Below, in pieces: positions 7,923-52,515 of a stretch of DNA of 52,515 bases; position 1 is the stretch's first letter, and the number at the start of each line of letters is the position of its first letter. Origin of the DNA: a virus (Duplodnaviria; Heunggongvirae; Uroviricota; Caudoviricetes); the IMG/VR virus record IMGVR_UViG_2724679237_000006, positions 1 to 52,515 of that record; one strand, written 5' to 3'. A program made the position numbers and the translations under genes. The notes under the pieces were generated by a model, which made no database searches, had not been told where the DNA came from, and saw nothing but the letters and a program-made list of their open reading frames with translations.

Positions 7923-7928
7923 GGAGTC

Positions 7929-10566: not shown

Positions 10567-10592
10567 AAAATAAGGCCCGAACGGGCCTTCTC

Positions 10593-11126: not shown

Positions 11127-11128
11127 AA

Positions 11129-18057: not shown

Positions 18058-18059
18058 CG

Positions 18060-18266
18060 CTACTCTCCCCACAACTGAATCATTTCTCGTTTCTTCTTCT
18101 CCGGCTCCGGCATCTCCACTTCCTGCCCGGCGTTCAGAAATACCTGCTGACAGAGTCCTGGGTTGGCATCCAGCACCTTTTCGGTGACGCCCTGCGTCAT
18201 GCCGTAGTAGCGGAAACAGAGCGAATCCACGGTGTCGCCTGCCAGTGCCTTCACTTTCATCAGCAC
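18060..18266 (-). CDS. X: Tail protein X (LysM-like)
   Basis: 68 aa; ALAGDTVDSLCFRYYG...VLDANPGL matches P2 gpX pattern. Confidence 0.8.
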   Translation of the reverse strand: MLMKVKALAGDTVDSLCFRYYGMTQGVTEKVLDANPGLCQQVFLNAGQEVEMPEPEKKKREMIQLWGE

Positions 18267-18763: not shown

Positions 18764-18855
18764 TCCTGAAAAAATCGGGCGGTGGGTGCGTGGTGTAAAC
18801 GGTCACGGAGTCAAACCGGAACACCGCGCACGCCGCCCGCTGACGGGGTCAGTCG

Positions 18856-19653: not shown

Positions 19654-19698
19654 TTTTTCTCTCCGTTACAGGCGGGCATGATGCCCGCCGTGAGTTGA

Positions 19699-20751
19699 TT
19701 AGCTGTCGGCGAACTTCAGGCCAGTGACCATCGCGCACTTGCCATAGTCTTCAACGACATAAGCGTCATTGATGGACTGGTAGGTGGCGATGCGGTTGTA
19801 TTCCGGTTCGTCTTTCATCAGACGACGCATTGAACCTTTCTGCCAGTAAATCGACAGGTTGTTGAACGAGGTGATCAGCATCGTTGAATCCGGGAAGAAC
19901 GGCGCAAGGAACACGCCCAGCCCGCCAATGGTGCGCGATGACAGAATGAGCTGCCCGGCAAGTAATTCCGCATTGGGATTCTGGCCGCTGATACTGTTCA
20001 GTACGGGCAGACGCAGCGAGTTAAACAGGTTGCGCCCCATAATCACCACAAGGTCGTCAGCTTCCTTGTGCCATTCATCCAGCAGGGATGAGCGTGCGTC
20101 CTGTACCAGTGCATCAGCGTTCGCATACTTACCCGCGTGCGCCACGGTGTTGTCCATGTTGCGGGAGGTCAGCGTCACGTCATTCATAACGCGCTCGCTG
20201 GCGTCGGTTCTGATGTGCTCCAGCCAGCCCACGTTAACGTCCTGAAGCAGCTGGTTGGTGCTGAAGTTGGACTCATCCGCGTGAGACGTGCCGTTGAAAC
20301 CGATCATGATGCGGTCAAGTGCCACCTGCCGGGCAATCTGTGCGCTGATGCGGGACTGAAAATCAGTGTGTGCCGCCCAGGCATCAAGCTGCGGATATGA
20401 AATAAACGTGTCGTAGTTCACCTGTTCGCACTGGTATTTGCGGTTTTTCAGATCAACCACGTTATTCGGGTTACGGCGTTTTGTGCCGTCATAACTGGTA
20501 TTCGTGCGTGCAATTGGCCCGGTGGTGTCCAGGAGGATTTTTTCGCCTTTCTGGTCGGTCACTCCGATCACGTTAATTCTTTTTGTAAATTCGGTGCTTT
20601 CCTTTGAGGCGTTTTCAAAACGCTGCTGCACCGAGGGGTCTACGGTAAATCGCGATACCAGTGCGGAAACCGGGATATTATTAAGCGACGCCTGCTGCGC
20701 CATATAGCAACCCAGCTTGTTGCGGGTAATATCTGACATCACCAGATTCAT
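19699..20751 (-). CDS. N: Major capsid protein N
   Basis: 350 aa; similarity to P2 gpN as recalled (KGEKI, DLVVI.GR.L, YFP.D.MLIT...NLSIY). Confidence 0.9.
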   Translation of the reverse strand: MNLVMSDITRNKLGCYMAQQASLNNIPVSALVSRFTVDPSVQQRFENASKESTEFTKRINVIGVTDQKGEKILLDTTGPIARTNTSYDGTKRRNPNNVVDLKNRKYQCEQVNYDTFISYPQLDAWAAHTDFQSRISAQIARQVALDRIMIGFNGTSHADESNFSTNQLLQDVNVGWLEHIRTDASERVMNDVTLTSRNMDNTVAHAGKYANADALVQDARSSLLDEWHKEADDLVVIMGRNLFNSLRLPVLNSISGQNPNAELLAGQLILSSRTIGGLGVFLAPFFPDSTMLITSFNNLSIYWQKGSMRRLMKDEPEYNRIATYQSINDAYVVEDYGKCAMVTGLKFADS

Positions 20752-20774
20752 AAAAAATTTGCTCCTTTGTCTTA

Positions 20775-21644
20775 TCAGAAGTCAGCCAGCTGGTCGGAGG
20801 CTGCGCCCGTTGCGGTGAACCGGTTCTGCGGATCGCCGTCCTGCGTGCGCAGTTTTTCCTTCAGTGCTGCCAGCTCTGTGGTCAGTAAAGTGATTTTCTG
20901 GCTGTCCTGCTGATGGCGGGTTTCCAGCACATTAAAACGGTCGATAATGTCGGCCTGTGACGTTGCGACACCTTCCACCGCTTCCTGAATACGGGAGAAA
21001 CTGGCGTCATCCGCTTTGCGGCCACGGCCAATAATCCCCATAACGCGGTTAAACCACTGGGTACCTTCTTCCTGACGTTGTTCGGTGAGTTCGATAAGTT
21101 CTGACTCCATAGCGGCGGTAAACATCGCCACGTCTCCCTGCTGACAGTTGAATGTCATCAGTTGCATACGTTGTTGTGCCGCAAAGGCCAGACGTTCCGT
21201 GCCCAGGCTGGCGGGGGTGTCGGTCATTGCCAGCCCGCGCAGGTAAGGGCCTCCCGTGATGGTTGACTGTGGCTCCAGCTCAATACTGGAGTAAATTTTT
21301 TTACCATCGTTAAGCAGGGACATCATGCGAGCGGTCGGCTCAATTTCGGCATACAGTGCCGTGCGACCTGCCAGCGGGCCATCGGTTATGTCTTCGGTGC
21401 TCAACCCCACAACATCGCCCATAGCGGAAAACTCGCTACCGGGGAGTGGTGACAGGATGTGCTCAATATTCACACGTGCACCATAAACGGACGGGTTATA
21501 ACTGGTGGCGGCAGCTTTCAGCATGTCGCCGTTGATTTCGCGCCCGTCTGCCGTTACACCGGAGACAGCCACGCGAAACTTTTTGCGGGTTGTTGATTTT
21601 TCATTAGCCATAGTTTTTGCCCCTCTGACTGGTCCTTCAGTCAT
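20775..21644 (-). CDS. O: Capsid scaffolding protein O
   Basis: 289 aa upstream of N, divergent from P. Confidence 0.8.
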   Translation of the reverse strand: MTEGPVRGAKTMANEKSTTRKKFRVAVSGVTADGREINGDMLKAAATSYNPSVYGARVNIEHILSPLPGSEFSAMGDVVGLSTEDITDGPLAGRTALYAEIEPTARMMSLLNDGKKIYSSIELEPQSTITGGPYLRGLAMTDTPASLGTERLAFAAQQRMQLMTFNCQQGDVAMFTAAMESELIELTEQRQEEGTQWFNRVMGIIGRGRKADDASFSRIQEAVEGVATSQADIIDRFNVLETRHQQDSQKITLLTTELAALKEKLRTQDGDPQNRFTATGAASDQLADF

Positions 21645-29783: not shown

Positions 29784-30029
29784 TCATGCTCTGATTTCTC
29801 TCAGTAGCTGGTTGAACATCTGGGTTAGAGGGTTGCTACACCCAAACGGCATCGGGTTTACCTGATAAGAAAAGCGACCGCCTGTTTTGCGCTCTTTTCT
29901 TATGACTGAACCGCTGCGCCAGAGACGGCGTAGCTCCGCATTAATGGTTGTGGTTGGTGTATTCAGTGCTGCGGCGATTTCTCCACCGCTACAACCCGGA
30001 TTGGCAGCGATGTAGTCCAGAATGGTCAT
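29784..30029 (-). CDS. Small winged-helix-like DNA-binding protein (hypothetical)
   Basis: 81 aa, ILDYIAANPGCSGGEIAAALN...LRRLWRSGSV resembles a wHTH. Confidence 0.4.
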   Translation of the reverse strand: MTILDYIAANPGCSGGEIAAALNTPTTTINAELRRLWRSGSVIRKERKTGGRFSYQVNPMPFGCSNPLTQMFNQLLREIRA

Positions 30030-30280
30030 CTGCGTGACTCCTGTACCTGTCTGATAAGATTCACCTGCACCACGTTGGTGGCGCAGAAGTAAGTACCGTC
30101 AGTGAGATAGATGTGATGTGCATCCTTTTCTGAACGGTGTTTGTCGATTGTGGTAATCAGGCGTTCGTCAACTTCGTATTCACGTCCTCTGGAGGTGAAA
30201 CGAACGACAGGAAAATGCTTAATTGCCATTACGCCTCCTTGGCGTGTGCGAATACCTCCGCGAATGCGGATTGTTTTCAC
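30026..30280 (-). CDS. Hypothetical early-region protein
   Basis: 84-aa ORF; start may be the internal Met (MAIKHF). Confidence 0.35.
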   Translation of the reverse strand: MKTIRIRGGIRTRQGGVMAIKHFPVVRFTSRGREYEVDERLITTIDKHRSEKDAHHIYLTDGTYFCATNVVQVNLIRQVQESRR

Positions 30281-30425
30281 ATTTTCTTATTTAACCTGGA
30301 GTCTTATTTGCGCGGTTATTCTTCAGTGAAAAAGCGTTCAATCTTTTTTACTGAATTAATAATTCGCATAATCCCAATAGCGCAGGCCACCGAAATAATC
30401 AGAACAAGCCATGAGATAAATATAC

Positions 30426-30668
30426 TCATGCAATATTTCCCAGTTTATATGGCTCAATATGGTCCCCGTTTTCTGCGGCGCAGACGAGTACGGAAAGCTC
30501 GTCGAGCGCGTCCGGGTCGTCAACGTAAAAAGCCGTGTCGTATATACTCTTGATAGCTCTGGTCAATGACTCTCGGGCTGCGCGTTCAGCATGAGCGCCT
30601 GATGCGTTTAAGCGAAAATGAAAGCGCTCAAGTGCTTTATTGACGAGAGTTTTATATTCTTTATCCAT
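30426..30668 (-). CDS. Hypothetical early-region protein
   Basis: 80-aa ORF in the early operon. Confidence 0.35.
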   Translation of the reverse strand: MDKEYKTLVNKALERFHFRLNASGAHAERAARESLTRAIKSIYDTAFYVDDPDALDELSVLVCAAENGDHIEPYKLGNIA

Positions 30669-30679
30669 CGCAACGCCCT

Positions 30680-30958
30680 TTAATCTGCCTTCTGAATTTC
30701 AGCTTCTGAATCCATGCAGATAATTTCGAGATAGGGTTTATCGCTATTAACCTGACGTGCTTTTTCAGCTTCTCTAATAATTTCGCATACGGGTTGATAT
30801 GGAATCTCTACGGTCAGGCGTGTGCCGTTCAGATAAATGTAAGTGGCCGTGCTTTTATCTACCGGAACCACTCCATCAATAGCTGATGCGCGCAACAACA
30901 GCTCACCGCGAAAATCAATAAAGCGGATAAATACACCCTGAGCATGGTCTTTGGTCAT
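30680..30958 (-). CDS. Hypothetical early-region protein
   Basis: ORF 30680-31057; likely start at MTKDHAQ (30958) to avoid overlap with the upstream gene. Confidence 0.35.
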   Translation of the reverse strand: MTKDHAQGVFIRFIDFRGELLLRASAIDGVVPVDKSTATYIYLNGTRLTVEIPYQPVCEIIREAEKARQVNSDKPYLEIICMDSEAEIQKAD

Positions 30959-30968
30959 AAAGCACCTG

Positions 30969-31319
30969 TTATAAATCAGCCTGTTTAATGAAATTCTGTC
31001 CACGCAGCAGACGATCAACCGTGCGCAGAGCTTCGTACAACGTGAAATCCTGTCCAAACTGATTGTCGCCGTTGCTCAGAGCAAAAATGCGGTTTCCGGT
31101 AAATGGGTTGCGTTGGCATCTGTGAACCACGATTCCAGCTTTCTCAATCAGCCAGGTGTGTTCACCAATTTGTTTTACGGGATGGCCATCAGGTGTAGCG
31201 TGTGTTTCGCTCAGGCTGTAGCGAGTGTTGCTACGTGATGTACTGATAGCGAAACGGTTAGCGTGGCGTTCTACGCCATTACGAAATTTGGAGTATGGAA
31301 TATTAGTGTTTTTTTTCAT
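30969..31319 (-). CDS. Hypothetical early-region protein
   Basis: 116-aa ORF. Confidence 0.35.
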   Translation of the reverse strand: MKKNTNIPYSKFRNGVERHANRFAISTSRSNTRYSLSETHATPDGHPVKQIGEHTWLIEKAGIVVHRCQRNPFTGNRIFALSNGDNQFGQDFTLYEALRTVDRLLRGQNFIKQADL

Positions 31320-31340
31320 GATGATGCTCTGTTCATTGTT

Positions 31341-31544
31341 TTAGCTGTTAGCCAAAGCGTCTTTTAACATCGCCACAAGGTTTACTTCAGGCTTTTCCAT
31401 TTTGGCGCGTTTGGGTCGGATAATAATTCGACCGTCAGCCAACATCTTTTTGCATGTATTAAGAGGGATACCTGTTATCTCTGCATATTTCTGCAGGGAT
31501 ACATAGGGGGCATTCACATTGATATTGATGGTTATACCTGACAT
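31341..31544 (-). CDS. Small HTH DNA-binding protein (Cox/Apl/CII-like regulator candidate)
   Basis: 67 aa; LQKYAEITGIPLNTCKKMLADGRI looks like an HTH. Confidence 0.45.
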   Translation of the reverse strand: MSGITININVNAPYVSLQKYAEITGIPLNTCKKMLADGRIIIRPKRAKMEKPEVNLVAMLKDALANS

Positions 31545-31560
31545 CCCATTAGCCTCCTGA

Positions 31561-31767
31561 TCAGGAAGATTTGTTTTGTTCTTTCTGGGTTAGCTCTAGG
31601 CCGCGAAGGAAGATCATGCGCGCCATGTTAGAGGATGAGCGTTGTTCTTTAGCTGCCATTTCATCAATGACGGCTCGCTCCTCGAGGGACAGCCGAAGTG
31701 CCAGTCTTGGACCTGTGGCGGTGTTACGCGGAATGCGTGATCTGGTATCGTGAAGAACTTGTTTCAT
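31561..31767 (-). CDS. Ribbon-helix-helix (CopG/Arc-like) regulator, first gene of early operon
   Basis: 68 aa; LRLSLEERAVIDEMAAKEQRSSSNMARMIFLRGLE fits the RHH pattern. Divergent from the C-like repressor gene. Confidence 0.5.
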   Translation of the reverse strand: MKQVLHDTRSRIPRNTATGPRLALRLSLEERAVIDEMAAKEQRSSSNMARMIFLRGLELTQKEQNKSS

Positions 31768-31809
31768 AGTGATATATTGTGATCATCTAATAGCTCGTGA
31801 AATCATTTT

Positions 31810-31827
31810 GGTATCAAAAAAGATACC
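31810..31827. promoter_or_regulatory. Perfect palindrome ggtatc-aaaaaa-gatacc in the divergent early/repressor promoter region
   Basis: 18-bp dyad 15 bp upstream of the repressor start codon; candidate operator. Confidence 0.45.
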
Positions 31828-31842
31828 TGTCAAGGTTTTTGT

Positions 31843-32247
31843 ATGAAAAATGATATTGGTCAGAGGTTGCGTGAGGAAAGGGAAAGATTGGGACTTAGTC
31901 AAGTTGCTATGAGCGACATTGGTGGAGTCAAAAAGCTAACTCAGCTTAGATATGAGAAAGGAGATAGCTTTCCTGATGCTGCGTATTTGGCAGCGCTGTC
32001 TCGTTTTGGCCTTGATGTTCAGTATGTTGTGTTGGGAATTCACTCACCTGAAACTTATAACGATGATGAGCAGGAGTTGATTACTCGCTTTCGAGCAGCT
32101 TCGTTAGATGTGAAAAACGCGGTGATCGGGGCTTTAAAAGGTGCGGCCAGTGAAAAGGAAACTCAGCCATCAGGACGTGAGTTAAATATTTCTGGCGGTA
32201 ATAACCGTATCGCTGGGCGTGACTATAACGAAACTAAGGGTAGGTGA
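31843..32247 (+). CDS. Immunity repressor, XRE-family HTH (C/CI-like)
   Basis: N-terminal HTH (LREERERLGLSQVAMSDIGGVKKLTQLRYEKGDSFP); divergent from the early operon and on the same strand as integrase, as for P2 C. Confidence 0.65.
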   Translation: MKNDIGQRLREERERLGLSQVAMSDIGGVKKLTQLRYEKGDSFPDAAYLAALSRFGLDVQYVVLGIHSPETYNDDEQELITRFRAASLDVKNAVIGALKGAASEKETQPSGRELNISGGNNRIAGRDYNETKGR

Positions 32248-32262
32248 TAGTAGGGAGGTGAC

Positions 32263-32913
32263 ATGGCCGTCAACTCAAACGGTTCAAACAATCGCGTTGC
32301 TGGGCGTGATTTTCACGAAAAGAATATTCAGATAGGGCGATATGATGGTTCTCATACCGTCAATATCGCAATCCCTTCGAATAATGATGATGACGATCGC
32401 CCTTTGCTTAAGGCTCAGCGTAAGGAGCTAAATAGCTTGGTTGCTGCTATTGCAGAAGCTAGCAATACTGAAGCGTTTATTATTTGGCAAAAAGTACATG
32501 CGGAGATTGGTGTAGCTGGTATTGATGATATGACAGTAAATCAATATAAAACAGCGGAGAGTTTTCTGCATGCAATGCTTGAGCGATGTAAAGATCATGA
32601 TGCCTGTAAGGCTCTTGTAAGTTTATTACTACGTAACAGTGAAGACTGTGGACTTCGACAAAAACTTCTGCGGTATTGCCATATCAATTTCGGTACAGGA
32701 CGTTTAAACGATCTTACTCGTTCTCAGTTGCAGTCTGCATTGTCGTGGTTAGAGCAACAATCGGTATCAAGCAACACAGAGAATTCGACCTTACCAGAAG
32801 TCCGACTTCGTGCTTCAGAATTAATCCGACTTTATCCAAAAGAAATAATATTCTTTATCTGCGTAGGGGGGGTGGTAGGTGGTGCCATTTCTAGGATGTT
32901 TTTTAATTTGTAA
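32263..32913 (+). CDS. Hypothetical protein with C-terminal TM anchor (cargo gene between repressor and integrase)
   Basis: 216 aa; N-terminus repeats the motif NNR(V)AGRD(F)HE found at the repressor C-terminus; C-terminal hydrophobic segment IIFFICVGGVVGGAI. Confidence 0.45.
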   Translation: MAVNSNGSNNRVAGRDFHEKNIQIGRYDGSHTVNIAIPSNNDDDDRPLLKAQRKELNSLVAAIAEASNTEAFIIWQKVHAEIGVAGIDDMTVNQYKTAESFLHAMLERCKDHDACKALVSLLLRNSEDCGLRQKLLRYCHINFGTGRLNDLTRSQLQSALSWLEQQSVSSNTENSTLPEVRLRASELIRLYPKEIIFFICVGGVVGGAISRMFFNL

Positions 32914-32942
32914 TCTTACTTGAGCTAAATTGAGGTAATGGT

Positions 32943-33290
32943 ATGAAAGTAAAAAATGTTCAACTATTAGTTACTTTTTTATCTATGTTTTCTTTTTCTG
33001 CCGTCGCAATGCCTTTTAAAAATATTGAACGTGAGAGTTTCAATGGGGTATGGCCATTTAATACTGATGAGGTTCAGTTACAGTGTCTAGATGGTAATCC
33101 TTATGTGATGAATTTTGACGATAATAAGTTATATGCGCTTACAGGTTTGGCTCGAATAAAAGGTAAAACATTTGGTGCGTTACCGTTAGATAACAATAAT
33201 CCATTTTGGCTGGATAATGATGCCGCCCCAGGGTTAAAAAAGAATCTGGGAGATGTCACTAAGGCTGCATTTGATTTATGTGATAAGTAA
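32943..33290 (+). CDS. Small secreted protein of unknown function (cargo gene)
   Basis: 115 aa with signal peptide (LLVTFLSMFSFSAVA); AT-rich coding sequence. Confidence 0.45.
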   Translation: MKVKNVQLLVTFLSMFSFSAVAMPFKNIERESFNGVWPFNTDEVQLQCLDGNPYVMNFDDNKLYALTGLARIKGKTFGALPLDNNNPFWLDNDAAPGLKKNLGDVTKAAFDLCDK

Positions 33291-33295
33291 CTAAA

Positions 33296-34297
33296 ATGTC
33301 GGTTCGTAAGATTCCATCAGGTAAATGGCTTTGCGAATGTTATCCTTACGGGGCATCGGGAAAACGTATTCGTAAACAGTTTGCGACAAAAAGTGAGGCG
33401 CTCTCTTATGAGCGCCGTTTAATGAATAGTAGAGTTGGAGACGAGTTTCAAGATGGTTCTGGTCCTCGTCTTTCTGAGTTGGTTGCTCGTTGGTTTGAGA
33501 TGTACGGTAAAACCTTGTCCTCTGGTGCAGAGCGCAAAGTCAAACTTGAGTCTATTTGTTCCAGGCTGGGAGATCCATTTGCTTCTCAGTTTGACAAAAA
33601 TATGTTTGCTACTTATCGGGAAAGGAGGTTATCAGGAGAATGGAATCCCAAGGGGAAGAAAAAACTTAGTGAAGCAACCGTTAATCGCGAGCAGTCATAT
33701 CTACATGCTGTTTTTGCCGAACTGAAGCGCCTTGGGGAGTGGTCTGGTGAAAACCCCCTGACTGGCATTCGCAAGTTTCGTGAGGAAGAAAAGGAATTGG
33801 CGTTTCTGTATGTAGATGAGATTGAACGCCTTCTGATTGCGTGTGATGAGTCACGGAATAAAGATTTGGGGGTTGTTGTCCGTATTGGGCTTGCGACTGG
33901 TGCTCGGTGGAGTGAAGCTGAAGGATTAAAGCAATCTCAAGTGCTGCCCGGTCGAATCACATTTGTTAAAACTAAAGGAAAGAAGAACCGCACTGTACCG
34001 ATTTCACCTCAATTGCAGGCTATGCTTCCTAAAAAACGAGGAGCGTTATTTTCACCATGTTATGAGGCTTTTGACGCTGCAATTAAGAGAGCGAAGATCG
34101 AGCTTCCTGATGGGCAATTAACTCATGTGCTACGTCACACGTTTGCCAGTCATTTTATGATGCGGGGAGGAAATATTCTTGTGTTGCAAAAAATACTGGG
34201 GCATAGCGATATAAAAATGACTATGCGTTATGCGCATTTTGCTCCAGGTCATTTAGAGGCTGCAGTTGAATTGAACCCTTTTGACAATAGAGGGTAA
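33296..34297 (+). CDS. int: Tyrosine integrase, P2 Int-like
   Basis: 333 aa; GKRIRK.F..KSEA, GARWSEA, RITFVKTK..K.RTVPIS, LRHTFASHFMM.GG.I..LQ.ILGH....MTMRYAHFAP match P2 Int as recalled, including catalytic R..H..R..Y. Confidence 0.9.
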   Translation: MSVRKIPSGKWLCECYPYGASGKRIRKQFATKSEALSYERRLMNSRVGDEFQDGSGPRLSELVARWFEMYGKTLSSGAERKVKLESICSRLGDPFASQFDKNMFATYRERRLSGEWNPKGKKKLSEATVNREQSYLHAVFAELKRLGEWSGENPLTGIRKFREEEKELAFLYVDEIERLLIACDESRNKDLGVVVRIGLATGARWSEAEGLKQSQVLPGRITFVKTKGKKNRTVPISPQLQAMLPKKRGALFSPCYEAFDAAIKRAKIELPDGQLTHVLRHTFASHFMMRGGNILVLQKILGHSDIKMTMRYAHFAPGHLEAAVELNPFDNRG

Positions 34298-34403
34298 AAA
34301 GTGGCGATAAAAAGTGACAATAGATTCAAATGGCATCGTATAGAGCTATTTGCAAAGTTAATAAAATCATAAGGTTATGATTTATAAATGGTGGTTGATA
34401 GTT

Positions 34404-34458
34404 TTTAAAATCCCTCGGCGTTCGCGCTGTGCGGGTTCAAGTCCCGCTCCGGGTACCA
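34404..34458 (+). other. 55-nt 3' fragment of a tRNA-Leu gene (anticodon loop to CCA), an attachment-site core
   Basis: tttaaaatccctcggcgttcgcgctgtgcgggttcaagtcccgctccgggtacca matches the 3' portion of an enterobacterial tRNA-Leu (UAA, leuZ-type) as recalled; upstream sequence cannot form the acceptor and D arms. Confidence 0.75.
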
Positions 34459-34502
34459 TGGGAAAGATAAGAATAAAATCAAAGCAATAAGCAGTGTCGT
34501 GA

Positions 34503-34525
34503 AACCACCTTCGGGTGGTTTTTTT
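34503..34525 (+). terminator. Rho-independent terminator after the tRNA fragment
   Basis: Stem aaccacc / ggtggtt, loop ttcg, followed by ttttttt. Confidence 0.7.
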
Positions 34526-34588
34526 GTATCTTCTTTCTCATTTCCGAAGATGCGTCCGAAGATGATTTTTCTCTGGACGCATCATCAT

Positions 34589-35605
34589 TCATTTTCTCTG
34601 GCCACCAACTACGGGCACTACTTTAACTTTCCGGTCATATGCTGCTGTCTGTCGCGGGTTCTTATGCCCGGAAATTGCTTGCTTCTCTTCCAGGCTGCCT
34701 TCCAGATCAGAGATACCTTTTGCTTTCAGATCATGAAATGTGAAGTCTATTTGCAGATGAGGATATTTTTCCTGTGCTGCCGCTTTGACATCACGCCAAC
34801 GAGAGTTAAAACCATCACGGGTATACTTGCCACCGGTAGTTTGATGAATCACAAACAGGCTACTGATTCCCGTTTTTAATGGCAGAGAACGAGCCAGAGC
34901 TATCGCTTTCTGCAGACGAGGCGACCAGGCTTTGATTTGCTTAACGCCGGTTTTTCCCTGACGAATGTAGATCCCGGAATCGAACAGCTGGTCTTTCTGC
35001 AATGAAAGTACATCACTCTGTCTGGCCACGCATAAGTAGGCAATCTCCATTGCTACGCGAACAACATCAGGAGACACTTCATAAACGGCCTGATATTCTT
35101 CATCCGTAATATAACGTTCGCGAGCTTTCTCTTTAAACTGTTTAACTCCCTGACAAGGATTCCTCTGAACATAACCTCGTTCATAACCCCAACGGAATAC
35201 CCGGGACATAAAGCTTTTTTCCCTGTTTGCCTGAGTTCGGCTTGATAAACCGCGTTGATCCATATAGCGCCGAATATGTTCAGGTTTGATTTTATCCGGG
35301 TCGATCTTCCCGAAGACAGGCAGAACTTTTCCGGAATATTTTGTGTAGTCTTTCCGGGTTTCGACTGCCAAATCCATAAAATCAGGGGAGGTCATGAATT
35401 GTTCCGTGAGCGCCTGAAAAGTATTTCTTTCTTTTTCGTCACCGACCGCTTTTTCATATGCCAGCCATACGGCTGATCGTGGTGCATCCAATGCGCACAG
35501 GCGTATCGCTTTGTTATCTTTATTCCTGAATTCGTAGGCCGCTTTGCCCTGGTAAACACGAGGCGGCATCCAGTTATCTGCTGGGTTCTTTCTCTTTCCG
35601 GCCAT
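34589..35605 (-). CDS. int: Tyrosine integrase (lambda Int family) of a second element
   Basis: ORF 34589-35635; N-terminal arm-binding-like MAGKRKNP..NWMPPRVY and C-terminal catalytic region (HDLKAKGISD...GH....TAAYDR). Confidence 0.85.
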   Translation of the reverse strand: MAGKRKNPADNWMPPRVYQGKAAYEFRNKDNKAIRLCALDAPRSAVWLAYEKAVGDEKERNTFQALTEQFMTSPDFMDLAVETRKDYTKYSGKVLPVFGKIDPDKIKPEHIRRYMDQRGLSSRTQANREKSFMSRVFRWGYERGYVQRNPCQGVKQFKEKARERYITDEEYQAVYEVSPDVVRVAMEIAYLCVARQSDVLSLQKDQLFDSGIYIRQGKTGVKQIKAWSPRLQKAIALARSLPLKTGISSLFVIHQTTGGKYTRDGFNSRWRDVKAAAQEKYPHLQIDFTFHDLKAKGISDLEGSLEEKQAISGHKNPRQTAAYDRKVKVVPVVGGQRK

Positions 35606-35837
35606 TAAATATTGCTCCAAAATCAGGTTCATCATCTTTTCGCGTCGTCACCTCCTGTAAATTGCGAAATTTTATTGGGTTCATGAAATGGCCCCAGGTT
35701 GTTTTTGGGTGTCCGTCAGCCCTTTCCATGAAGAAAATTCCAGCCCGGCGAAGAGCCTCACATTGCTTTGATTTAAGTGGGCTTCCCGTCAGCTCGACCA
35801 TTTCTTCTCTGGTGATTATGTCGTGATCGCTTTTCAT
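35574..35837 (-). CDS. Excisionase-like / small DNA-binding protein
   Basis: 87-aa ORF immediately upstream of and overlapping int; ITREEMVELTGSPLKSKQCEALRRAG is HTH-like. Confidence 0.4.
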   Translation of the reverse strand: MKSDHDIITREEMVELTGSPLKSKQCEALRRAGIFFMERADGHPKTTWGHFMNPIKFRNLQEVTTRKDDEPDFGAIFNGRKEKEPSR

Positions 35838-39530: not shown

Positions 39531-40204
39531 TAAAGGGTGCCGGTTACGTTTCCGGCGTCGTCATGTTTCCATCACGACCGTACAGGGCTGGTCTTTCCTG
39601 TTTTGAGCTGGTCAGGCTCATGGTCAACGCTGGTCAGGCGTGGTACTTCCTCCGGTCTTTCCCTGGTGTCACGCTGCGGGTTTGGCCTCTCCTGTTGGGG
39701 ACTCAGGCACAGCGATAAAACCTGGCTGTGTGAAAAAATGGCCCATCGTGCGGACTGGGCAAAGACTAAACACAGCAAATTGATGATGGGCGCCCGGAAT
39801 CGAACCGGGTAACGGGCAGGGAGTTCCCGTTAAACACCTGTTCACCACAACCGGGAGCGCACTCCGCCATTTCAAAATTTAACGACAAAGCTCAAAGTTG
39901 AGTCGATGAAGTGCGCTCTCGTGTTGTAGCCAGGACTCTTCCCTGGTGGTCACACCGTATCGCCTTGATGGTGAATCAATCGCTCATACCTGGCTGTGGC
40001 TTGCACATTCCGGCTACCTGCTATGGAGACAACGCGTTAAGGCTCCGCTTCCATCCAGACCGCTTCGACACATGTGCCATATGCCGGTGAAGTCTTTCCC
40101 TCTGTCATCGTGCTGTCGGCGACCCGAAGAATTAAGTTCCGGGATTTTTCAACACGCCCGGTCGTGCTACCTTTAATGCCCACACAACAAAAAAGGATTT
40201 TCTT

Positions 40205-40438
40205 ATGTCAGAGCTTGAACAACTTAAAGATGAACTGGCTTTACTTAAAAAGGAGCTAAAGTCTCACCAGGTAATACTGTCTGCGTTGGTTGGTCGTATG
40301 AGCTACGAGGAGAAATCCGACCTATCAAAGCATGTTGCAAAAGCGAAATCAGAGCTTTATCCGGGTGATGATTTCAGCCTGGGAATATTCAATAAGTTGC
40401 TTCTAGTAACTGATTACAAACCGATTCCCAGAAAGTAG
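40205..40438 (+). CDS. Small coiled-coil protein (hypothetical)
   Basis: 77-aa ORF (ELEQLKDELALLKKELK). Confidence 0.3.
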   Translation: MSELEQLKDELALLKKELKSHQVILSALVGRMSYEEKSDLSKHVAKAKSELYPGDDFSLGIFNKLLLVTDYKPIPRK

Positions 40439-40613
40439 CCTCATCCATTTGCGCGCCATCAAACTTATCGATGGCGCCACTTAATATCGCAAGAACATCA
40501 CCTGCATCCTTAGCGTTGAGTTCACCCGAGATCTTGCGAAGATTCTCGACCAAGGCCAAAGCTACTGGACCAACGGCACTTCCTGCCGCAATTGAAACCT
40601 TACGAAGTTCCAT
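40389..40613 (-). CDS. Hypothetical protein
   Basis: 74-aa ORF downstream of the repressor gene. Confidence 0.3.
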   Translation of the reverse strand: MELRKVSIAAGSAVGPVALALVENLRKISGELNAKDAGDVLAILSGAIDKFDGAQMDEATFWESVCNQLLEATY

Positions 40614-40764
40614 CTCTTCTCCTTTCCCTTAACGCCGGGTAGCGGAACGTGTTTCTGAACAACTGCCGCTGGGTAAGCGTTGTTGATGGAATGAATATAA
40701 CTAAAGGTAATTTTATGTGCAAGGTGTTTTATAACAAAAGTTAGTATTTGGGGTAAAAATAAAG

Positions 40765-40800
40765 GCAATGCATTGAAAACATTGCCTTTATTTTATTTTT
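40765..40800. terminator. Bidirectional terminator at the 3' end of the repressor gene
   Basis: Stem aaggcaatg / cattgcctt followed by tattttattttttgg; A/T runs on both sides. Confidence 0.65.
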
Positions 40801-41206
40801 TGGTGGGGGTTAGTTTCTTTCTGGTAACCAGTAACTCTTCAAATAAACGATTAAAGTTTTCAACTTTATCTTCTAATTCAATTAGTTGCTTTTCTTTTTC
40901 TGACTCGGGTAATGAATCAAATAACTCTAACAATCTTTTTTGACGTGAATCCAGCTCTGTTGGTAATTCGTCTACCGGAGTTGGCGCCTGGTCTTCGTCA
41001 CCAAAAAGCAGCCATGTGGCAGAACACTTAAGTGCATTGGCCAAAGCCAGCAAGTTCTGACCCTTTGGTTCATTTTGTCCGCTTTCCCATTTAAAAACGC
41101 TCACACTCGATCTTCCAACCATATCAGCAAGCTGTTGTTGGGTTAGACCAAGCTGTTTGCGTCTTTGAGATAAACGGTCGCTAAGCATCAAATTCTTCAT
41201 CCTCAT
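40793..41206 (-). CDS. CI-like repressor, XRE-family HTH (no S24 peptidase domain)
   Basis: 137 aa; LTQQQLADMVGRSSVSVFKWESGQNEP HTH; divergent from a Cro-like gene. Confidence 0.75.
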   Translation of the reverse strand: MRMKNLMLSDRLSQRRKQLGLTQQQLADMVGRSSVSVFKWESGQNEPKGQNLLALANALKCSATWLLFGDEDQAPTPVDELPTELDSRQKRLLELFDSLPESEKEKQLIELEDKVENFNRLFEELLVTRKKLTPTKK

Positions 41207-46292: not shown

Positions 46293-46516
46293 ATTGACTT
46301 AGAAAAAGTCCGGGGCTATAGTTTCCGCGCAGCCGCAAAATCGGTTGCCGGGATTGGCGTCCCGGATATCTAAGTGACGCATAGCCGCGTTAGCGGTTTT
46401 TTTATGTGTTAGGCACGGCCACATTCGCATTATGGTGGGCTGTGTGGGGGCTTCTGTGGAAGCGCCGGGTTCACTTAGCCGGTTACGCCAACCCTGCACA
46501 GCTCACCACCAGATGA

Positions 46517-47353
46517 TTGGCGTCGCTGGTGGTGATGAAAAAAACACTAAGTGAGGCCACTGCGATGACAGTCCAAATATCTGCGGAATCCCTTTCTCCG
46601 CTACATCATAACCAACTTCCCGTCATCACTACTGAATTGCTTGCCAGTTTGTATGGCACGGAAGTAAATGGTATCCAGCAAAACTTCAAGCGCAACATCG
46701 CCAGATTTGTCGTAGGAAAGCATTTTTTTAAGCTGGAAGGTAATGAATTACGCGACTTCAAAAACAGACTGACAGATAGTCAGTCAGTTGCTAAACATAC
46801 CCGATCCCTCATTCTCTGGACAGAACGCGGCGCAGCTCGCCATGCCAAAATGCTGGAAACAGAACAGGCCTGGGAAGTTTTCGAAAAGCTGGAAGATTGT
46901 TATTTTAGCCAGCGTCCAGAGAGGCGGAGTACAACTACCGATGACCGTACTCCCTTGCGTGATGCCGTTAATATACTGGTCGGCAAGAAAGGCATGATGT
47001 ATCCCGATGCCTACACCATGATTCATCAACGCTTCGCCGTCTCTCACATAGAACAACTGTCACAGACGCAAATGTTAGAGGCGATTGAATACATCCACTG
47101 CCTGCTACTCGATGAAAATCACCCAACCATTCCAGATTTTTCTTTTATCACCACTATCAAAAATGGAAAAGTGACCGGGATGCGCCATGTTGCCAAAGGC
47201 GAACATCTGATGACCTTTGACGCTTTCAAAGAGATCGCTGAGCGGGCAGGGTATCTGGTGATCCACAGCGACAATCTGCGAAGTATGACACTGGATAAAT
47301 TGATGGTAATGGGGAAAAAGTCGGCTATATCCGTTGCTAATTCAGCATTTTGA
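46517..47353 (+). CDS. Phage antirepressor (Bro-N/ORF6N-like N-terminus, KilA-C-like C-terminus)
   Basis: 278 aa; HNQLPVITTELLASLYG...FKRN..RFVVGKHFF resembles antirepressor N-domains; start codon uncertain. Confidence 0.6.
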   Translation: MASLVVMKKTLSEATAMTVQISAESLSPLHHNQLPVITTELLASLYGTEVNGIQQNFKRNIARFVVGKHFFKLEGNELRDFKNRLTDSQSVAKHTRSLILWTERGAARHAKMLETEQAWEVFEKLEDCYFSQRPERRSTTTDDRTPLRDAVNILVGKKGMMYPDAYTMIHQRFAVSHIEQLSQTQMLEAIEYIHCLLLDENHPTIPDFSFITTIKNGKVTGMRHVAKGEHLMTFDAFKEIAERAGYLVIHSDNLRSMTLDKLMVMGKKSAISVANSAF

Positions 47354-47720
47354 CAGGTTGTTTGGGGCGGAAATACTCTATTTGCGCTTAGGATACTTGT
47401 TAGCTACTTCCACTTTTGTCACAAAGCGGACTATCTGGCTGAGCTGAGGGTCCGCAGTGAGTGAGGATCGAACATTTAAGCGTCGGTACTGATGACGGAT
47501 TTGAGGTATTTAAAATATTACAGGAGCTAGTGTGGATGTGACAGACATAAAAGTGGATGCAGTCAGAAAAGACATATGTATAGCAGGCTTCTTCGAGGAC
47601 TAGATCAATCAATAAGATTTAGATAAAATTGCAGTGTTAAATAAAAAGACTAGTAGTATTTAAACTTTAAGTGCGTTAGTAAGGTCGTGCAATTATATAA
47701 AACTAACGTTTTCTGAATGT

Positions 47721-48428
47721 TTGGAGAGTAAAATGTTAGAACCGCCAAAGAATTATAATGAAATGTTACCCATGCTCCATAAGGCAACTTTTATTACTAC
47801 ATTTATATTTTACCTATCATTGGTTATTTATGGCTACATACCATTGGTTGGCATTAATGCCAAGTACATTCCACCAATCAAAGACTACGAAGAATTTATT
47901 AAGTGGATATTAACATTCGGCATATTACCAATTGCATTCTCAATTTTTTGGTCTGTGATTAGTGGGGCTTTAGATCTACATAATAACGTGGCAAAAATTC
48001 TTGGAATAAGAAAAGCATGGGATAATTACTTAATTGTTAAACCATTGGCGCAAGTTGCAGGCATTACAAGAAAATTAACTAGTGATGAATCCTCCAAAGT
48101 AATGAACAAACTGTATTACCCAGAAGTTAATGAGTTAAAAGATAAACATTATGTTGAGCTCTTCTGGAATAAGGTTTATTACTTTTGGGTTTTCTTTGAA
48201 CATACTGTGATTGCATTTATTACTGTTTTAGTAATAAGTTTTGCTAAAATAACCCATTTACTCTCTGTAACCGGTTCTTTAAAAAATCTTTGGTTGTGGG
48301 TTATTTTTATTGTTGTCTTTAATTTTCTTATTTTTATTGCATCCGTTAAACCCAGAACTGAAGGCCAAGTCAGACAAATACCTGATGATAAGATAAAGGA
48401 ATTTTTTAATAATAACAGTATTTTTTAA
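47721..48428 (+). CDS. Polytopic membrane protein (4 predicted TM helices), unknown function
   Basis: 235 aa, AT-rich; hydrophobic segments FITTFIFYLSLVIYGYIPLVGI, ILTFGILPIAFSIFWSVISGAL, YYFWVFFEHTVIAFITVLVISFA, LWLWVIFIVVFNFLIFIASV. Confidence 0.55.
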   Translation: MESKMLEPPKNYNEMLPMLHKATFITTFIFYLSLVIYGYIPLVGINAKYIPPIKDYEEFIKWILTFGILPIAFSIFWSVISGALDLHNNVAKILGIRKAWDNYLIVKPLAQVAGITRKLTSDESSKVMNKLYYPEVNELKDKHYVELFWNKVYYFWVFFEHTVIAFITVLVISFAKITHLLSVTGSLKNLWLWVIFIVVFNFLIFIASVKPRTEGQVRQIPDDKIKEFFNNNSIF

Positions 48429-49094
48429 ATGAGGTTAGTTTTGAATTACAAAATAAATGGAATGACTATACGTTCAGAAAATGCAGCAAAACCGCATACT
48501 ATGCCATCTAACTATCTCTGTAACCATATTGAAAATTCTGTTAAAAATGGCATAGCCCTTGATTTCGGATGTGGAAAGCTTAGATATTCAGAACAATTAG
48601 TAAATAAATTTGAAGCTGTGACGTTTTTAGATTCCAGAAAACAGTTAGAAAGAGTGCAAATTATCAGAGGCGTACAAACCACAATTCCAGAGTATGTGGC
48701 TAATAATTATAAAAATGCTAATGTTGTCCCTTTTGAAAGTATAGATAAAATAAAAGATAATTATGATTTCATACTTTGCGCAAACGTGCTTTCCGCAATT
48801 CCATGCAAATCAACAATTTACAAAATCATCAATGAGATTGGGAGATTATTAAAAAATGATGGTGAAGCAATTATTGTTAATCAATACAAAAGCTCTTATT
48901 TCAAAAAGTATGAGACTGGAATAAAACATTTGCATGGATATATATACCAAAACTCTCGCAATGCTTTCTATTATGGCTTATTGGATGAGAATATTGTAAG
49001 TAAAATTTGCTTGGATAACAATTTAGCAGTAATAAAGTCATGGAGCAAAGCTGGCAGTTCATATGTGGTTGTTGGTAAAAATAAACATAATTAG
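48429..49094 (+). CDS. Class I SAM-dependent methyltransferase-like protein
   Basis: 221 aa; motif I-like IALDFGCGKL, acidic residue after beta-2 (VTFLDS), motif IV-like DFILCANVL. ATG directly abuts the upstream stop (TAAATG). Confidence 0.5.
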   Translation: MRLVLNYKINGMTIRSENAAKPHTMPSNYLCNHIENSVKNGIALDFGCGKLRYSEQLVNKFEAVTFLDSRKQLERVQIIRGVQTTIPEYVANNYKNANVVPFESIDKIKDNYDFILCANVLSAIPCKSTIYKIINEIGRLLKNDGEAIIVNQYKSSYFKKYETGIKHLHGYIYQNSRNAFYYGLLDENIVSKICLDNNLAVIKSWSKAGSSYVVVGKNKHN

Positions 49095-49421
49095 TAAATT
49101 TAAAAATAATATTAGAGGGTGCCATTTTCTTATTACTTATTAACTCGCTGGGGTAGGGGCAACACGCCCCACCTCATCAAGTTACTGCAGGATTATAGAC
49201 TTTTGTCAAAACGTTGGAAAAATTCAGTACAAACTTTTCCATGTTTTTCCTAATCATAGATAATGATGCTCACTTATGTTAACAACTTCTTGTACATAAC
49301 GGTCTTCTTCAACAGGACAGCTATAAGTGAAGAAATAAAGTCGATAAACAATAAAGAGGCTCCAAATAAATATTATTCAATGAAGCCTGCTGTTTATTAT
49401 TTGTTATTATTAAATCGCTAC

Positions 49422-50321
49422 TTATAATTCAACAATTTTTAGTATTATATCAATATTATTTAGCCTTGCAATCTCTGATGAATCGTTTGCAATTTTATCT
49501 TTTAAATTATCAATGTTAATCATATCTTCAGAGCTAATACAAACCATATCACCTTGGTTAACTTTTGATTTGTTCACTATGGCTTGAATAACAGACAGAT
49601 CGTCCATTACACCTCTCAGGAATTTAACCATGCTTTGATCCTTGAAATCAGATATCGATTTTGAACGTTGCTTACGTTGGATTGTTCCTTTTGTAATTAT
49701 TTCGTTAATTTCTTTTAAACCGGCAAGCATATCAGATATGCTTCCTTCGCAACTCATCCTGTGTTTAATAGCATTGCGATTAATAACATTGAGTATTATT
49801 TCGAGTGAATCTCTATCATCCCATGGCAATAATAATGTATAATCCTGATGGCGATGAATGGCATCAAGCATATCAAGGATCATATTTTCATCTGCTTTAT
49901 CGCAAAGTTCATTTACAAAATAGCTGGGGTCGATTACTTTACAATAACTTGGAACTGAGCATTTTGAGCTTTTACAAAACCCAAAAATATATAAAAAAGG
50001 GTATATGTCTTTTAGACTCTTTCCTGATTTATTTTCTTTTTCAAAGGCTGCGATTGTTTTTTTAATTTTTGCCGGGGTTGCTTTCGTTGTAACTTGAACT
50101 GCTATCATGTTTTTATTGTCAGCTAAATCAATGGCGGGAAAGTTAACTTTAATCTGATTCATGTTTTCCAGTTCCCCCATTTTCAGTGCGCGAAACATAT
50201 AAATGGTCAATGACTCAATCATTCTTTCCATGTCATGAAAGCCAGTCTGTTTGCGTTGTTCGATATAAAGCTGAAGTAGCGCAATATCTTTCTGTAAGTT
50301 ACTAATAAGTGGGGCAATCAT
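49422..50321 (-). CDS. SMEK-domain-like protein (N-terminal domain), unknown function
   Basis: 299 aa; N-terminal region ...LENMNQIKVNFPAIDLADNKNMIAVQVTTKATPAKIKKT resembles the SMEK domain signature as recalled. Confidence 0.45.
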   Translation of the reverse strand: MIAPLISNLQKDIALLQLYIEQRKQTGFHDMERMIESLTIYMFRALKMGELENMNQIKVNFPAIDLADNKNMIAVQVTTKATPAKIKKTIAAFEKENKSGKSLKDIYPFLYIFGFCKSSKCSVPSYCKVIDPSYFVNELCDKADENMILDMLDAIHRHQDYTLLLPWDDRDSLEIILNVINRNAIKHRMSCEGSISDMLAGLKEINEIITKGTIQRKQRSKSISDFKDQSMVKFLRGVMDDLSVIQAIVNKSKVNQGDMVCISSEDMINIDNLKDKIANDSSEIARLNNIDIILKIVEL

Positions 50322-50854
50322 AGCTAATAATCCTTTTCAATTAAGTAGGGGATGTGTTTGAGCTTCTTTATTTGACTGTTAGTTTAATTTCTTGTTTTCA
50401 TATTAACAAGCTCTACAATTTTATCAAGATTTCTCAAAAACTAATCCTCCGTGTAAATCCACTAACTATGCTGAATTTATTCCGCTGTGAAACATGTCCG
50501 CTCATGGCTGTGAGTTCAACGGGTCGATGCAACGCCATCCACTCAGTAAAATTGTGTAATTCCAGTGAGCAGGCGAATCTTCAGTATGCTCTAGTTTCTT
50601 ACTCACACCTGCTTATGCTTTAACTAGGTACAATGTAGATAAACTCTCATGTTGATTTATCGCCATGATCACATTTCCGGAAGAAAAATTTTGTTTGTAA
50701 CCTTGCTAGATGAGACAGTATAGATATCATTACATATGAAACAGTACATTAGGGAACACTGAAGGCCGTAACTTTAAAAAATATAATTAATTGTACATAA
50801 TTTTATAACCATCAAGATGGTGGCAATTATATAAGTAATAATAAGGGTTGATTA

Positions 50855-52207
50855 ATGATTAAATTCACAGAAAAGGAAATACAAAATTACATATGGGAAA
50901 ATAGGAACAATTTTCCCGAACTGCTTATTGAACCTGCAGGTCTTGAAGTACTTGAATTCAACGAAGATCTCTCTGATGTAACAGCACAACTGCTAATAAA
51001 AAACAGAATAAATAGTAAACTATCCAATCTTCACTCTAAGCTTTATGGACTGGAATTTATCGGCTGCGAAGTTCCTTTAGAACAAAATTCAAACTCAACA
51101 ATTAGAGCCGATTTTTTGGCTATATTCTGTGATGATACTGGGCTTGCTGTCATAGAGCTTAAAAAAAGTGAACAGACTGAAAGGCAAGCATTCACTGAAT
51201 TGTTAGCATATTCAAACCATATGACAACATTATTTCCATCCATGACGAAAAATGACAGTGTGTATATTTTAATATCACCAATGGAAACCAGAATAGCACG
51301 TGATGCTGTCATCCAAAGTTTAATATTTGACAATAGGGATATCATTGCTTTAATTCCAACATTCTCTGATCCTCTTGATATTACCTCTCTTAAACTTGAA
51401 TTATGGATTCCAGACCAAACAGAGTTAGCGACTTTCTCAAATATTGCATTTAGAGAAGATAATTTTAGTGTCTGTAAATTATCCTGGGAGTATGATGCAG
51501 AGCGATGGGATGCAGCTAGAGGAGAAGAACTTTTACATTCATTTGTTAGTCAATTTGATAACATTTCCTGCCTTGCAGCTCAGTATATGGAAGAATCTGG
51601 AGTTCATGGTTTTACTTATTGCTCTCAGTTATGGCCTGAATTATCTCAGGCATTACCTTTTACGAATTCATTAGTACTAGTTGGCATGAATCCTTATGCT
51701 GTCGGGAGTGTCCAGCATTTATCCACAGAATGCGATAACTATGATGATATACCAGACCCAAATGCTTACACTCCTCACATATCTGAATTAATTGGTAAAC
51801 TAGGTGAAGGAGAATTATATGAGGATAATATTGATGTCCTAAGTGGTTTACATCGTGTATGGAGCTCTCAGTTATATCGTATAGGTAAGCAGGTAATTGA
51901 ACTCACCACTAGAAATACAGATGGGAAATACGTCCACGTTGAATATGGCTTTATGAATTGGGAAATCTATCAAAGGTCACTACTTGAGGATGTTTTCTGT
52001 GAAAACTTCGCTATTAGGTCTACAGGTTTAATACGACATCTCTATACTGACATTCTTAAATTAGATTATGATTTTTGTAAAAATAACGGATTAGAAAATC
52101 ACCCTATTCATGGAGACATGCCATACTTAGGTGTCAATTTTCTTAAATCCCAACAGCACTTTAGAAAATTTATTTTGCGAATGTTCTATGCCGAAATAGA
52201 TGCGTAG
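50855..52207 (+). CDS. PD-(D/E)xK nuclease-like protein, unknown function
   Basis: 450 aa; N-terminal region has a D...E.K arrangement (IRADFLAIF...GLAVIELKKSEQTE) typical of the PD-(D/E)xK fold. Confidence 0.45.
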   Translation: MIKFTEKEIQNYIWENRNNFPELLIEPAGLEVLEFNEDLSDVTAQLLIKNRINSKLSNLHSKLYGLEFIGCEVPLEQNSNSTIRADFLAIFCDDTGLAVIELKKSEQTERQAFTELLAYSNHMTTLFPSMTKNDSVYILISPMETRIARDAVIQSLIFDNRDIIALIPTFSDPLDITSLKLELWIPDQTELATFSNIAFREDNFSVCKLSWEYDAERWDAARGEELLHSFVSQFDNISCLAAQYMEESGVHGFTYCSQLWPELSQALPFTNSLVLVGMNPYAVGSVQHLSTECDNYDDIPDPNAYTPHISELIGKLGEGELYEDNIDVLSGLHRVWSSQLYRIGKQVIELTTRNTDGKYVHVEYGFMNWEIYQRSLLEDVFCENFAIRSTGLIRHLYTDILKLDYDFCKNNGLENHPIHGDMPYLGVNFLKSQQHFRKFILRMFYAEIDA

Positions 52208-52515
52208 TGAGATTTTTTGATTTATCTCTGCTGGAGAAAATTCATGGGTGAGGGAAGAGATAGATAATATTGAAAATAAAACTTTCAAAAGATGTTGAAA
52301 TAAAAAGCATGATCTAAATTATTTTGGCATTCATTTCATGTGAAACAGCTCTTCTAAAAATCTATACAGGCATAGGTGGAATTTTCTCATGATTTTTTAG
52401 TTGTAATTTATCTTTACTGAATAATATATGGGGAGGATTGTCGCCGTAAGCGGCTCGTCAGAACCGTATTGATATTTACTGAGAGCTCAGATCAACTTTC
52501 CAGGGCAACAGATCG

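Follow-up and report, generated by a model that had tools for sequence, protein, structure and literature searches.

An AT-rich cargo island in an Escherichia coli lambdoid prophage carries candidate anti-phage modules

The stretch of DNA analysed here, the 52,515-nt IMG/VR virus record IMGVR_UViG_2724679237_000006 (hereafter the window), comprises a piece of Escherichia coli chromosome and then a lambdoid prophage, which starts at the integrase gene near 34.6 kb (34589-35635), with the host/prophage junction just before it. At the right end of the window lies an AT-rich cargo island (47574..52445), delimited by its composition, by blastn borders against related loci and by the differing cargo of sibling prophages. 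The island carries four genes. Their products match what an earlier note on this DNA had described from the list of open reading frames (ORFs): a 231-aa membrane protein (47733..48428, + strand; 235 aa if the start is at 47,721), a 221-aa class-I S-adenosylmethionine (SAM)-dependent methyltransferase (48429..49094, +), a 299-aa SMEK protein (49422..50321, -) and a 450-aa protein with a PD-(D/E)xK nuclease domain (50855..52207, +). As that note had also said, an antirepressor gene precedes the island: the gene at 46,517-47,353 (+) is of the ORF6N antirepressor type (Pfam ORF6N, 1e-21). We hold, with moderate confidence, that the island has a mosaic structure, with accessory ("moron") genes in three independent modules that are candidate anti-phage units: the membrane protein and methyltransferase pair, the SMEK gene, and the gene of the 450-aa nuclease.

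Computed over the whole stretch, the GC content of the island is 0.329; every other 4.9-kb stretch of the window has a GC content of at least 0.432, with a mean of 0.516. In windows of 1 kb, GC goes from 0.485-0.49 at 45-47 kb to 0.39, 0.30, 0.32, 0.345 and 0.36 at 47-52 kb. Sliding windows thus bore out the sharp drop that had been reported earlier, but not its position at 47,400: when binned at 200 nt, the step (from ~0.50 to 0.33) lies at ~47,500-47,600, some 150 nt further right, at ~47,575. Comparisons with related loci by blastn placed breakpoints at ~47,574, 49,170, 50,508 and 52,445. Low GC persists up to 52,445, where homology to the genome of E. coli EC28 stops and the end of an insertion sequence of the IS66 family follows. 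The island is therefore at the right end of the window, as had been claimed, but does not extend to 52515. Repeats inside the island were limited to chance-level pairs, and an Rfam scan of 47.5-52.5 kb returned no RNA family. Other moderately low-GC stretches of the window (0.41-0.45) are found at 9000-12000 in the host part, at 30000-35000 around the host/prophage junction, and at 40000-41000 in the early region of the prophage.

E. coli EC28 is the closest complete genome, with 98.9% identity across 47,300-52,445. Its prophage has, in order, the integrase, the repressor region, RepO, a DnaB-type helicase, small genes, the ORF6N gene and the four island genes, followed by four more hypothetical genes, DUF1367, DUF1364, the antiterminator Q, and the lysis and terminase genes. 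Through these four further hypothetical genes (17143-21100 of the EC28 locus, L001) GC is intermediate (0.41-0.45), and typical values are back at about the start of DUF1367, giving a full cargo region of ~9 kb. Sibling prophages with the same two-sided backbone have unrelated genes between ORF6N and DUF1367, which identifies this interval as a variable cargo slot. In two of them (L080 and L081) the slot holds a gene resembling LprI-family lysozyme inhibitors, a GIY-YIG nuclease, an ImmA/IrrE peptidase with an adjacent gene, and an IS1 element. The slot that the island fills in this E. coli lambdoid prophage thus runs from the ORF6N antirepressor, on the replication side, to the late-control genes DUF1367-DUF1364-Q, on the nin side. 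The fixed position in the backbone, the differing cargo of the siblings and the atypical composition are those of a prophage cargo hotspot, and composition and sibling differences together support the earlier view of a horizontally acquired cargo island within the prophage. Accessory defence genes are well known from lambdoid prophages (rexAB, sieB, bstA) and from the hotspots of P2 and P4. Like those prophage defence hotspots, the slot described here is variable, AT-rich and fixed in the backbone; the difference is that its cargo holds no validated system. The membrane protein and methyltransferase pair also ends P2-like prophages, after ogr, a position that is reportedly not among the two P2/P4 hotspots of an earlier study (PMC9122126), whose text, when searched, had no mention of ogr.

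From its distribution across genomes, the island appears to consist of three independently mobile modules. The first (47574..49170, +) is the cassette of the membrane protein and the methyltransferase, including ~160 nt of its own upstream sequence. The second (49171..50508, -) is the SMEK gene with its flanks, and it closes at 50,508 the cassette formed by the triad of membrane protein, methyltransferase and SMEK protein. The third (50509..52445, +), the gene of the 450-aa nuclease with its flanks, is found in only 5 of the 5,426 complete E. coli genomes. The triad is present in 151 of the same 5,426 genomes, five with at least 99% identity and 146 with ~85%; the 450-aa gene is confined to the former five, so that 146 of the 151 triad carriers lack it. 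In two loci that contain only the pair (L027 and L028), blastn homology stops at ~49,164-49,172, while homology to loci with a solo SMEK gene covers ~49,325-50,468. Across a tblastn table of 49 loci, each of the 33 loci with the membrane protein gene has the methyltransferase after it; SMEK is restricted to lambdoid blocks of the E. coli type, being absent from L027 and L028 (88-89% identity) and from the pair loci of lower identity. The ~85% allele of the triad resides in another lambdoid prophage, next to hokD and inverted with respect to the phage backbone. E. coli C7 offers a view of this arrangement, with the triad at ~83% identity in a Qin/Rac-like lambdoid prophage beside hokD (10001-12905 of locus L002, NZ_CP010240); the inversion indicates that the triad moved as a unit by recombination at the ends of the cassette.

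The behaviour of the triad in E. coli is what could be expected if the membrane protein, the methyltransferase and the SMEK protein, with or without the 450-aa nuclease, formed a single system, either restriction-modification (R-M)-like or a trio of sensor, modifier and effector. The three genes are always together in the 151 genomes, the three alleles diverge to a similar degree in each of the genes (85/82/84%, ~89/90/85% and 96-100%), the block moves between prophages as a unit, even inverted, and a methyltransferase with a nuclease is superficially R-M-like. We nonetheless regard a single system as quite unlikely. Pairs that lack SMEK are known from loci of as much as 88-89% identity, as well as from P2-like prophages, Pseudomonas, Saccharophagus and metagenomes; SMEK homologues (48-77% identity) stand alone among unrelated neighbours; SMEK is transcribed convergently and a recombination breakpoint separates it from the pair; the methyltransferase does not match any DNA methyltransferase family; and the 450-aa gene is missing from most triad genomes. 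The earlier suggestion of one undescribed system does not fit these data, as the pair, the SMEK gene and the 450-aa gene are each found elsewhere without the others, with homology breakpoints between them. R-M systems of types I-III were also considered as such: the methyltransferase had no match to N6_N4_Mtase, MethyltransfD12 or DNA_methylase, and the pair and the nuclease genes are separate elsewhere, so that membership appears improbable. Since the methyltransferase is of the small-molecule/protein type, an R-M-like logic of methyltransferase plus nuclease is unlikely.

The SMEK protein combines a SMEK/Mrr-like PD-(D/E)xK domain (residues 1-~130) with a C-terminal helical bundle. It belongs to SMEK_N (PF21941 / NF033859), scoring 82.8 bits against a Pfam cutoff of 27 and 108.6 against an NCBIfam cutoff of 30. 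The N-terminal domain also matches PDB 26bh, the "Mrr domain from K. jejudonensis Mrr-APAZ pAgo" (E 7.7e-9), with which it shares the core FPAIDLAD...QxT. The 77 homologues, of constant length (~300 aa), come from Gamma-, Beta- and Alphaproteobacteria; residues E36, D65, D68, Q76, T78 and K85 of the nuclease domain and R182, H187, E192, G193 and K221 of the C-terminus are invariant among them. The helical bundle itself (~170 aa) is restricted to this ~300-aa family. SMEK has been described as an Mrr-like nuclease effector, located N-terminally on the APAZ partners of short Argonautes (SPARDA) and on the LmuA protein of short Lamassu (PMC10810196, PMC12205087, PMC12663957, bioRxiv 10.1101/2023.06.08.544223). 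The island protein thus has the same N-terminal nuclease domain that lies on a larger protein in SPARDA (Kordia jejudonensis SMEK-APAZ with a short prokaryotic Argonaute, pAgo) and in short-Lamassu LmuA, but it has no APAZ domain, pAgo gene or LmuB/SMC partner, and is solo in every context compared. The PADLOC match to Aga_REase-PNTD1-PNTD2 covers residues 6-113 of the protein and positions 7-109 of a 463-position profile, and the C-terminus is a helical bundle, so that the protein does not qualify as SPARDA; nor does it qualify as Lamassu, with no SMC-like ORF in the island, no Lamassu match in PADLOC and differing neighbours around eight SMEK homologues. No pAgo/PIWI match was obtained for the four island proteins with PADLOC or Pfam, and the solo SMEK loci have no annotated PIWI neighbour. 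Unlike type IV (modification-dependent) restriction enzymes of the Mrr/AspBHI kind, the protein begins with its nuclease, an inverted domain order, and has no recognisable domain for binding DNA or reading modified bases; in place of the D...(E/Q)xK motif it has D...QxT with a helix-borne K85.

The neighbours of eight SMEK homologues (48-77% identity) were compared, and all eight are solo genes with unrelated neighbours. Their contexts include a region with an integrative and conjugative element (ICE) and type IV secretion system in Yersinia, integrase islands and a SymE/TacAT locus in Enterobacter, a small island in Pseudomonas, a Pantoea plasmid (between ArdA/SSB/PsiB and the partition genes) and a Cupriavidus locus beside SymE. 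In Xanthomonas the homologue adjoins Gabija-like OLD and UvrD genes. A SymE-family toxin gene, located ~250-500 nt from SMEK in Cupriavidus (L007) and Enterobacter (L010), is the sole recurring neighbour. The Pseudomonas locus has a SLATT_5 neighbour, which raised the possibility of a SLATT-like effector; BLASTP found no similarity of this neighbour to the island membrane protein, and none of 23 members of the membrane protein family had a SLATT match. Another Pseudomonas neighbour of SMEK, a 219-aa protein, was considered as a homologue of the methyltransferase and showed no similarity to it.

The 450-aa protein has an N-terminal NucS-type PD-(D/E)xK nuclease domain with the motif D86...E101-x-K103, and E72, D86, E101 and K103 are invariant across its family. 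Its C-terminal ~280 aa are confidently folded and have no solved structural relative; no family-level match to the protein was found in Pfam or PADLOC. Full-length homologues of ~450 aa (37-98% identity) occur in Gammaproteobacteria, Bacteroidota and Bacillota. One adjoins Kiwa in Vibrio, one is flanked by HipA and a Septu-like AAA_15/HNH pair, one lies on a Zot-encoding, filamentous-phage-like contig beside a PLD nuclease, and others stand after a terminase gene or within a tail-gene region. In Priestia megaterium the homologue is directly downstream of an OLD-family ATPase-TOPRIM gene (5107-8323 of locus L020; 185 nt 3' of the co-oriented 569-aa OLD-family gene), which we take to be the place where a GajB-type helicase would stand in Gabija; the two genes could form an OLD variant or simply be adjacent. 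The six loci compared share no common neighbour, and the 450-aa gene is thus a solo gene. In contrast to NucS/EndoMS, the nuclease domain is N-terminal and the N-terminal DNA-binding domain of NucS is missing; with neither the two-domain architecture nor a profile match, the protein does not fall into the NucS/EndoMS (DUF91) family. It also differs from the related effector nucleases of Shedu (SduA), Can2/Card1 and Hachiman (HamA) in having no DUF4263 signature, CARF domain or helicase partner. Shedu was discarded for want of the DUF4263 nuclease-domain match that defines SduA, and Hachiman for want of HamA (PF08878) with an adjacent HamB helicase.

Two island proteins thus bear nuclease domains of kinds that serve as effectors in known defence systems. 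Their conserved catalytic residues, their architecture of an effector with a private domain, and their contexts in phages, plasmids, ICEs and beside known systems point to stand-alone, nucleic-acid-targeting proteins with a putative role in defence or inter-element conflict. For the SMEK protein, the helical bundle would be the regulatory, sensing or oligomerisation part of an Mrr-like nuclease effector; for the 450-aa protein, the novel C-terminal region is the presumed sensor or regulator of a NucS-like nuclease. Judging from these domains, both would most likely recognise an infecting phage or other mobile element and then cleave the invading or the own DNA. Such a nucleolytic attack would protect the lysogen and hence the prophage.

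The same contexts could mean that the island genes serve competition between elements or addiction (prophage stabilisation, or action against plasmids and ICEs) instead of defence against lytic phages. The plasmid and ICE locations of SMEK and its two SymE neighbours would fit such a role, as would the position taken by the triad next to hokD and the single 450-aa homologue adjoining HipA. On the other hand, a small antitoxin-like partner is conserved beside neither nuclease in the SMEK and 450-aa loci compared, and anti-phage systems typically occur in such contexts as well, so that the data discriminate poorly between the two roles. We consider a role restricted to competition or addiction unlikely, and retain candidate anti-phage units as the preferred description of the two nuclease modules.

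The membrane protein of the first module has four predicted transmembrane (TM) segments (18-43, 54-82, 148-175 and 181-205). It has a conserved loop motif (H83, N84, R93, W96) and E156 in TM3. Its close family is mostly from Enterobacterales, and the polar residues H83, R93, D97 and E156 are conserved across the whole superfamily, which suggests a specific binding or catalytic site, probably not a simple pore. Neither this protein nor ten distant relatives matched a family in Pfam, NCBIfam, PHROG or PADLOC. An exhaustive profile search recovered a superfamily of 232 clusters of ~230-250 aa, mostly from soil and sediment metagenomes, again with no Pfam domain. The methyltransferase has an intact motif I (LDFGCGKLRY), a family-specific N-terminal IRSENAAKP, and further invariant motifs (C-x-N-V-x-SAIP, NQ-x-x-x-SYF and HL-x-GY). 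It matches Methyltransf_11/12/23/25/31, TehB, MTS and NodS in Pfam but no DNA methyltransferase family, and its NCBIfam scores for TehB, BioC and OvoA-type families are far below cutoff. With matches only to class-I families of the small-molecule/protein type, the enzyme is unlikely to methylate DNA.

The ATG of the methyltransferase gene abuts the stop codon of the membrane protein gene (TAAATG), an arrangement compatible with coupled translation. The pair is found directly after gpD-Ogr in P2-like prophages of Providencia and Enterobacter, again without SMEK, after the O and P replication genes of another lambdoid phage, directly downstream of HamA/HamB (Hachiman) in Pseudomonas sp. PICF141, and near UmuDC and an integrase in one metagenomic element. 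A membrane relative of 25% identity has the methyltransferase immediately downstream (35% identity, E 2e-41) and a GmrSD-type gene upstream. Among 80 metagenomic loci of a distant subgroup, the methyltransferase family is adjacent in 51 (45 downstream, 5 upstream and 1 on the opposite strand). That adjacency is kept at low identity and in reversed order argues strongly for a functional pair.

A described membrane protein and methyltransferase pair is TehA/TehB, which like the island pair has a membrane protein and a TehB-like class-I methyltransferase in an operon (Pfam TehB, weak, 2.1e-5). The 10-TM TehA is, however, unrelated to the 4-TM island protein, and the pair resides in prophages and islands, not in the core genome. 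With 29.5 bits for NF008405 against a cutoff of 218 and no TehA/SLAC1 match for the membrane protein, TehAB was set aside. PD-Lambda-5, which has a methyltransferase component, gave no PADLOC match.

For the pair we commit only to a probable joint, membrane-associated function in methylation of a non-DNA target; the 4-TM protein and a cytoplasmic methyltransferase in all likelihood act in concert at the membrane. We can only tentatively propose that the methyltransferase acts on or controls its membrane partner or a membrane-associated small molecule, thereby excluding superinfection or aborting infection. It could methylate or gate the membrane protein, in the manner of CheR and its receptors, or couple a membrane effector to the SAM status of the cell; some phages attack the SAM pool with SAM lyases. 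A role of the pair in superinfection exclusion or abortive infection is our leading idea, held at low confidence, and the fuller proposal that it is an undescribed, widespread two-gene anti-phage system of this type, working by non-DNA methylation, is similarly doubtful.

About equally likely is a non-defence role, in which the pair would be a module of lysogenic conversion or fitness, modifying a small molecule, a lipid, a quinone, a toxic oxyanion or the membrane partner, while the nucleases may still defend. The best family-level likeness of the methyltransferase is to small-molecule enzymes of the TehB, NodS and BioC type, its PADLOC result is a weak mad2 match in the methyltransferase domain (E 1.6e-4) with no system-level match, the distant homologues have mainly housekeeping neighbours, and the family is broad and mostly environmental. 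Yet close relatives occupy accessory positions of prophages (the nin-side slot of lambdoid phages and the P2-like end after ogr) and are immediate neighbours of Hachiman and GmrSD, no TehB score comes near the family cutoffs, and the membrane protein is unrelated to TehA. We give a fitness module of this kind a modest probability.

Several observations weigh against the description of the island as independent candidate anti-phage units. A search of the defence models of PADLOC-DB v2.0.0 returned no full-length system match, which agrees with the earlier statement that no named defence system fits; its only hits were mad2 (1.6e-4), REase_II (2e-3), PDC-S11 (0.02) and the SMEK domain. A literature search that covered the RefSeq accessions, the place of SMEK and of NucS-like proteins in defence, and prophage systems of a methyltransferase plus TM protein turned up no account of the families. 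The neighbours of the 80 distant loci of the pair are mostly ordinary metabolic and transport genes, and the defence genes among 109 neighbour ORFs of distant pair homologues are limited to DrmA/DrmD, one reverse transcriptase, two SIR2_2 and two mad3, so that the defence-island signal of the pair is modest. About a quarter of the distant membrane protein homologues do not have the methyltransferase: 19 of ~70 adequately flanked loci (including L126, L138, L139, L141 and L144) lack both it and an alternative conserved partner, suggesting a membrane protein that may work alone or with a partner encoded elsewhere. The E. coli triad, always whole and with three co-diverged alleles, leaves some room for functional coupling. 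Finally, the island has no more promoter-like or terminator-like sites than shuffled sequence has, so that expression in the lysogen can only be presumed, and H-NS often silences such AT-rich DNA.

Taken further, these last points would reduce the island to foreign DNA that is silenced, decaying and at present without function: it is very AT-rich and hence a likely H-NS target, it has no excess of promoter-like sites, and an IS66 element has inserted at its right edge. Against this, none of the four ORFs is broken or shortened by comparison with its homologues in other genera and phyla, the catalytic and motif residues do not vary, and the cassette is 98-100% conserved among its carriers, which makes decay very unlikely. 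We therefore keep to a mosaic of three modules with presumed protective functions.

Two further features flank the island. The IS66-family terminus (52446..52515) cuts its right side in this genome. These 70 nt recur in thousands of E. coli records, chromosomes and plasmids alike; in phage PPwrbA_EC3734, IS66-type ORFs of 523, 115 and 225 aa stand immediately next to the matching segment. The terminus accounts for the 3,162 E. coli records, plasmids included, that the raw 5.2-kb query matched. The element took the place of the sequence after the 450-aa gene, where EC28 has its four hypothetical genes. On the left, just upstream of the ORF6N gene, Rfam families were matched at 46316-46513 (+): isrK (80.4 bits), C4 antisense RNA (75.2 bits) and the C4 a1/b1 target sites (52.9 bits), all three above their gathering scores. 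The segment resembles what we presume to be an antisense control cassette for the antirepressor, of the P1 immI / Gifsy-1 isrK-anrP type.

What is new here is a prophage hotspot with uncharacterised nuclease-effector proteins and a conserved, unassigned gene pair. The recognition of three units instead of one alters how the island should be cloned and tested, and the genes in the slot of L080 and L081 are further uncharacterised cargo, candidates for screening alongside those of the island. The pair is the most informative and most original target, as a predicted non-DNA methyltransferase that distant bacteria couple with a membrane protein of its own; this design has no described counterpart among the defence systems compared here. 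Should the two nucleases be defensive, they would extend the design of an effector nuclease with a private sensor domain to SMEK and NucS folds that have no Argonaute, SMC or helicase partners. If any of the modules protects against phages, it would represent a new single-gene or two-gene defence system, and the antirepressor-to-Q slot of lambdoid prophages would be a productive hunting ground, like the hotspots of P2 and P4.

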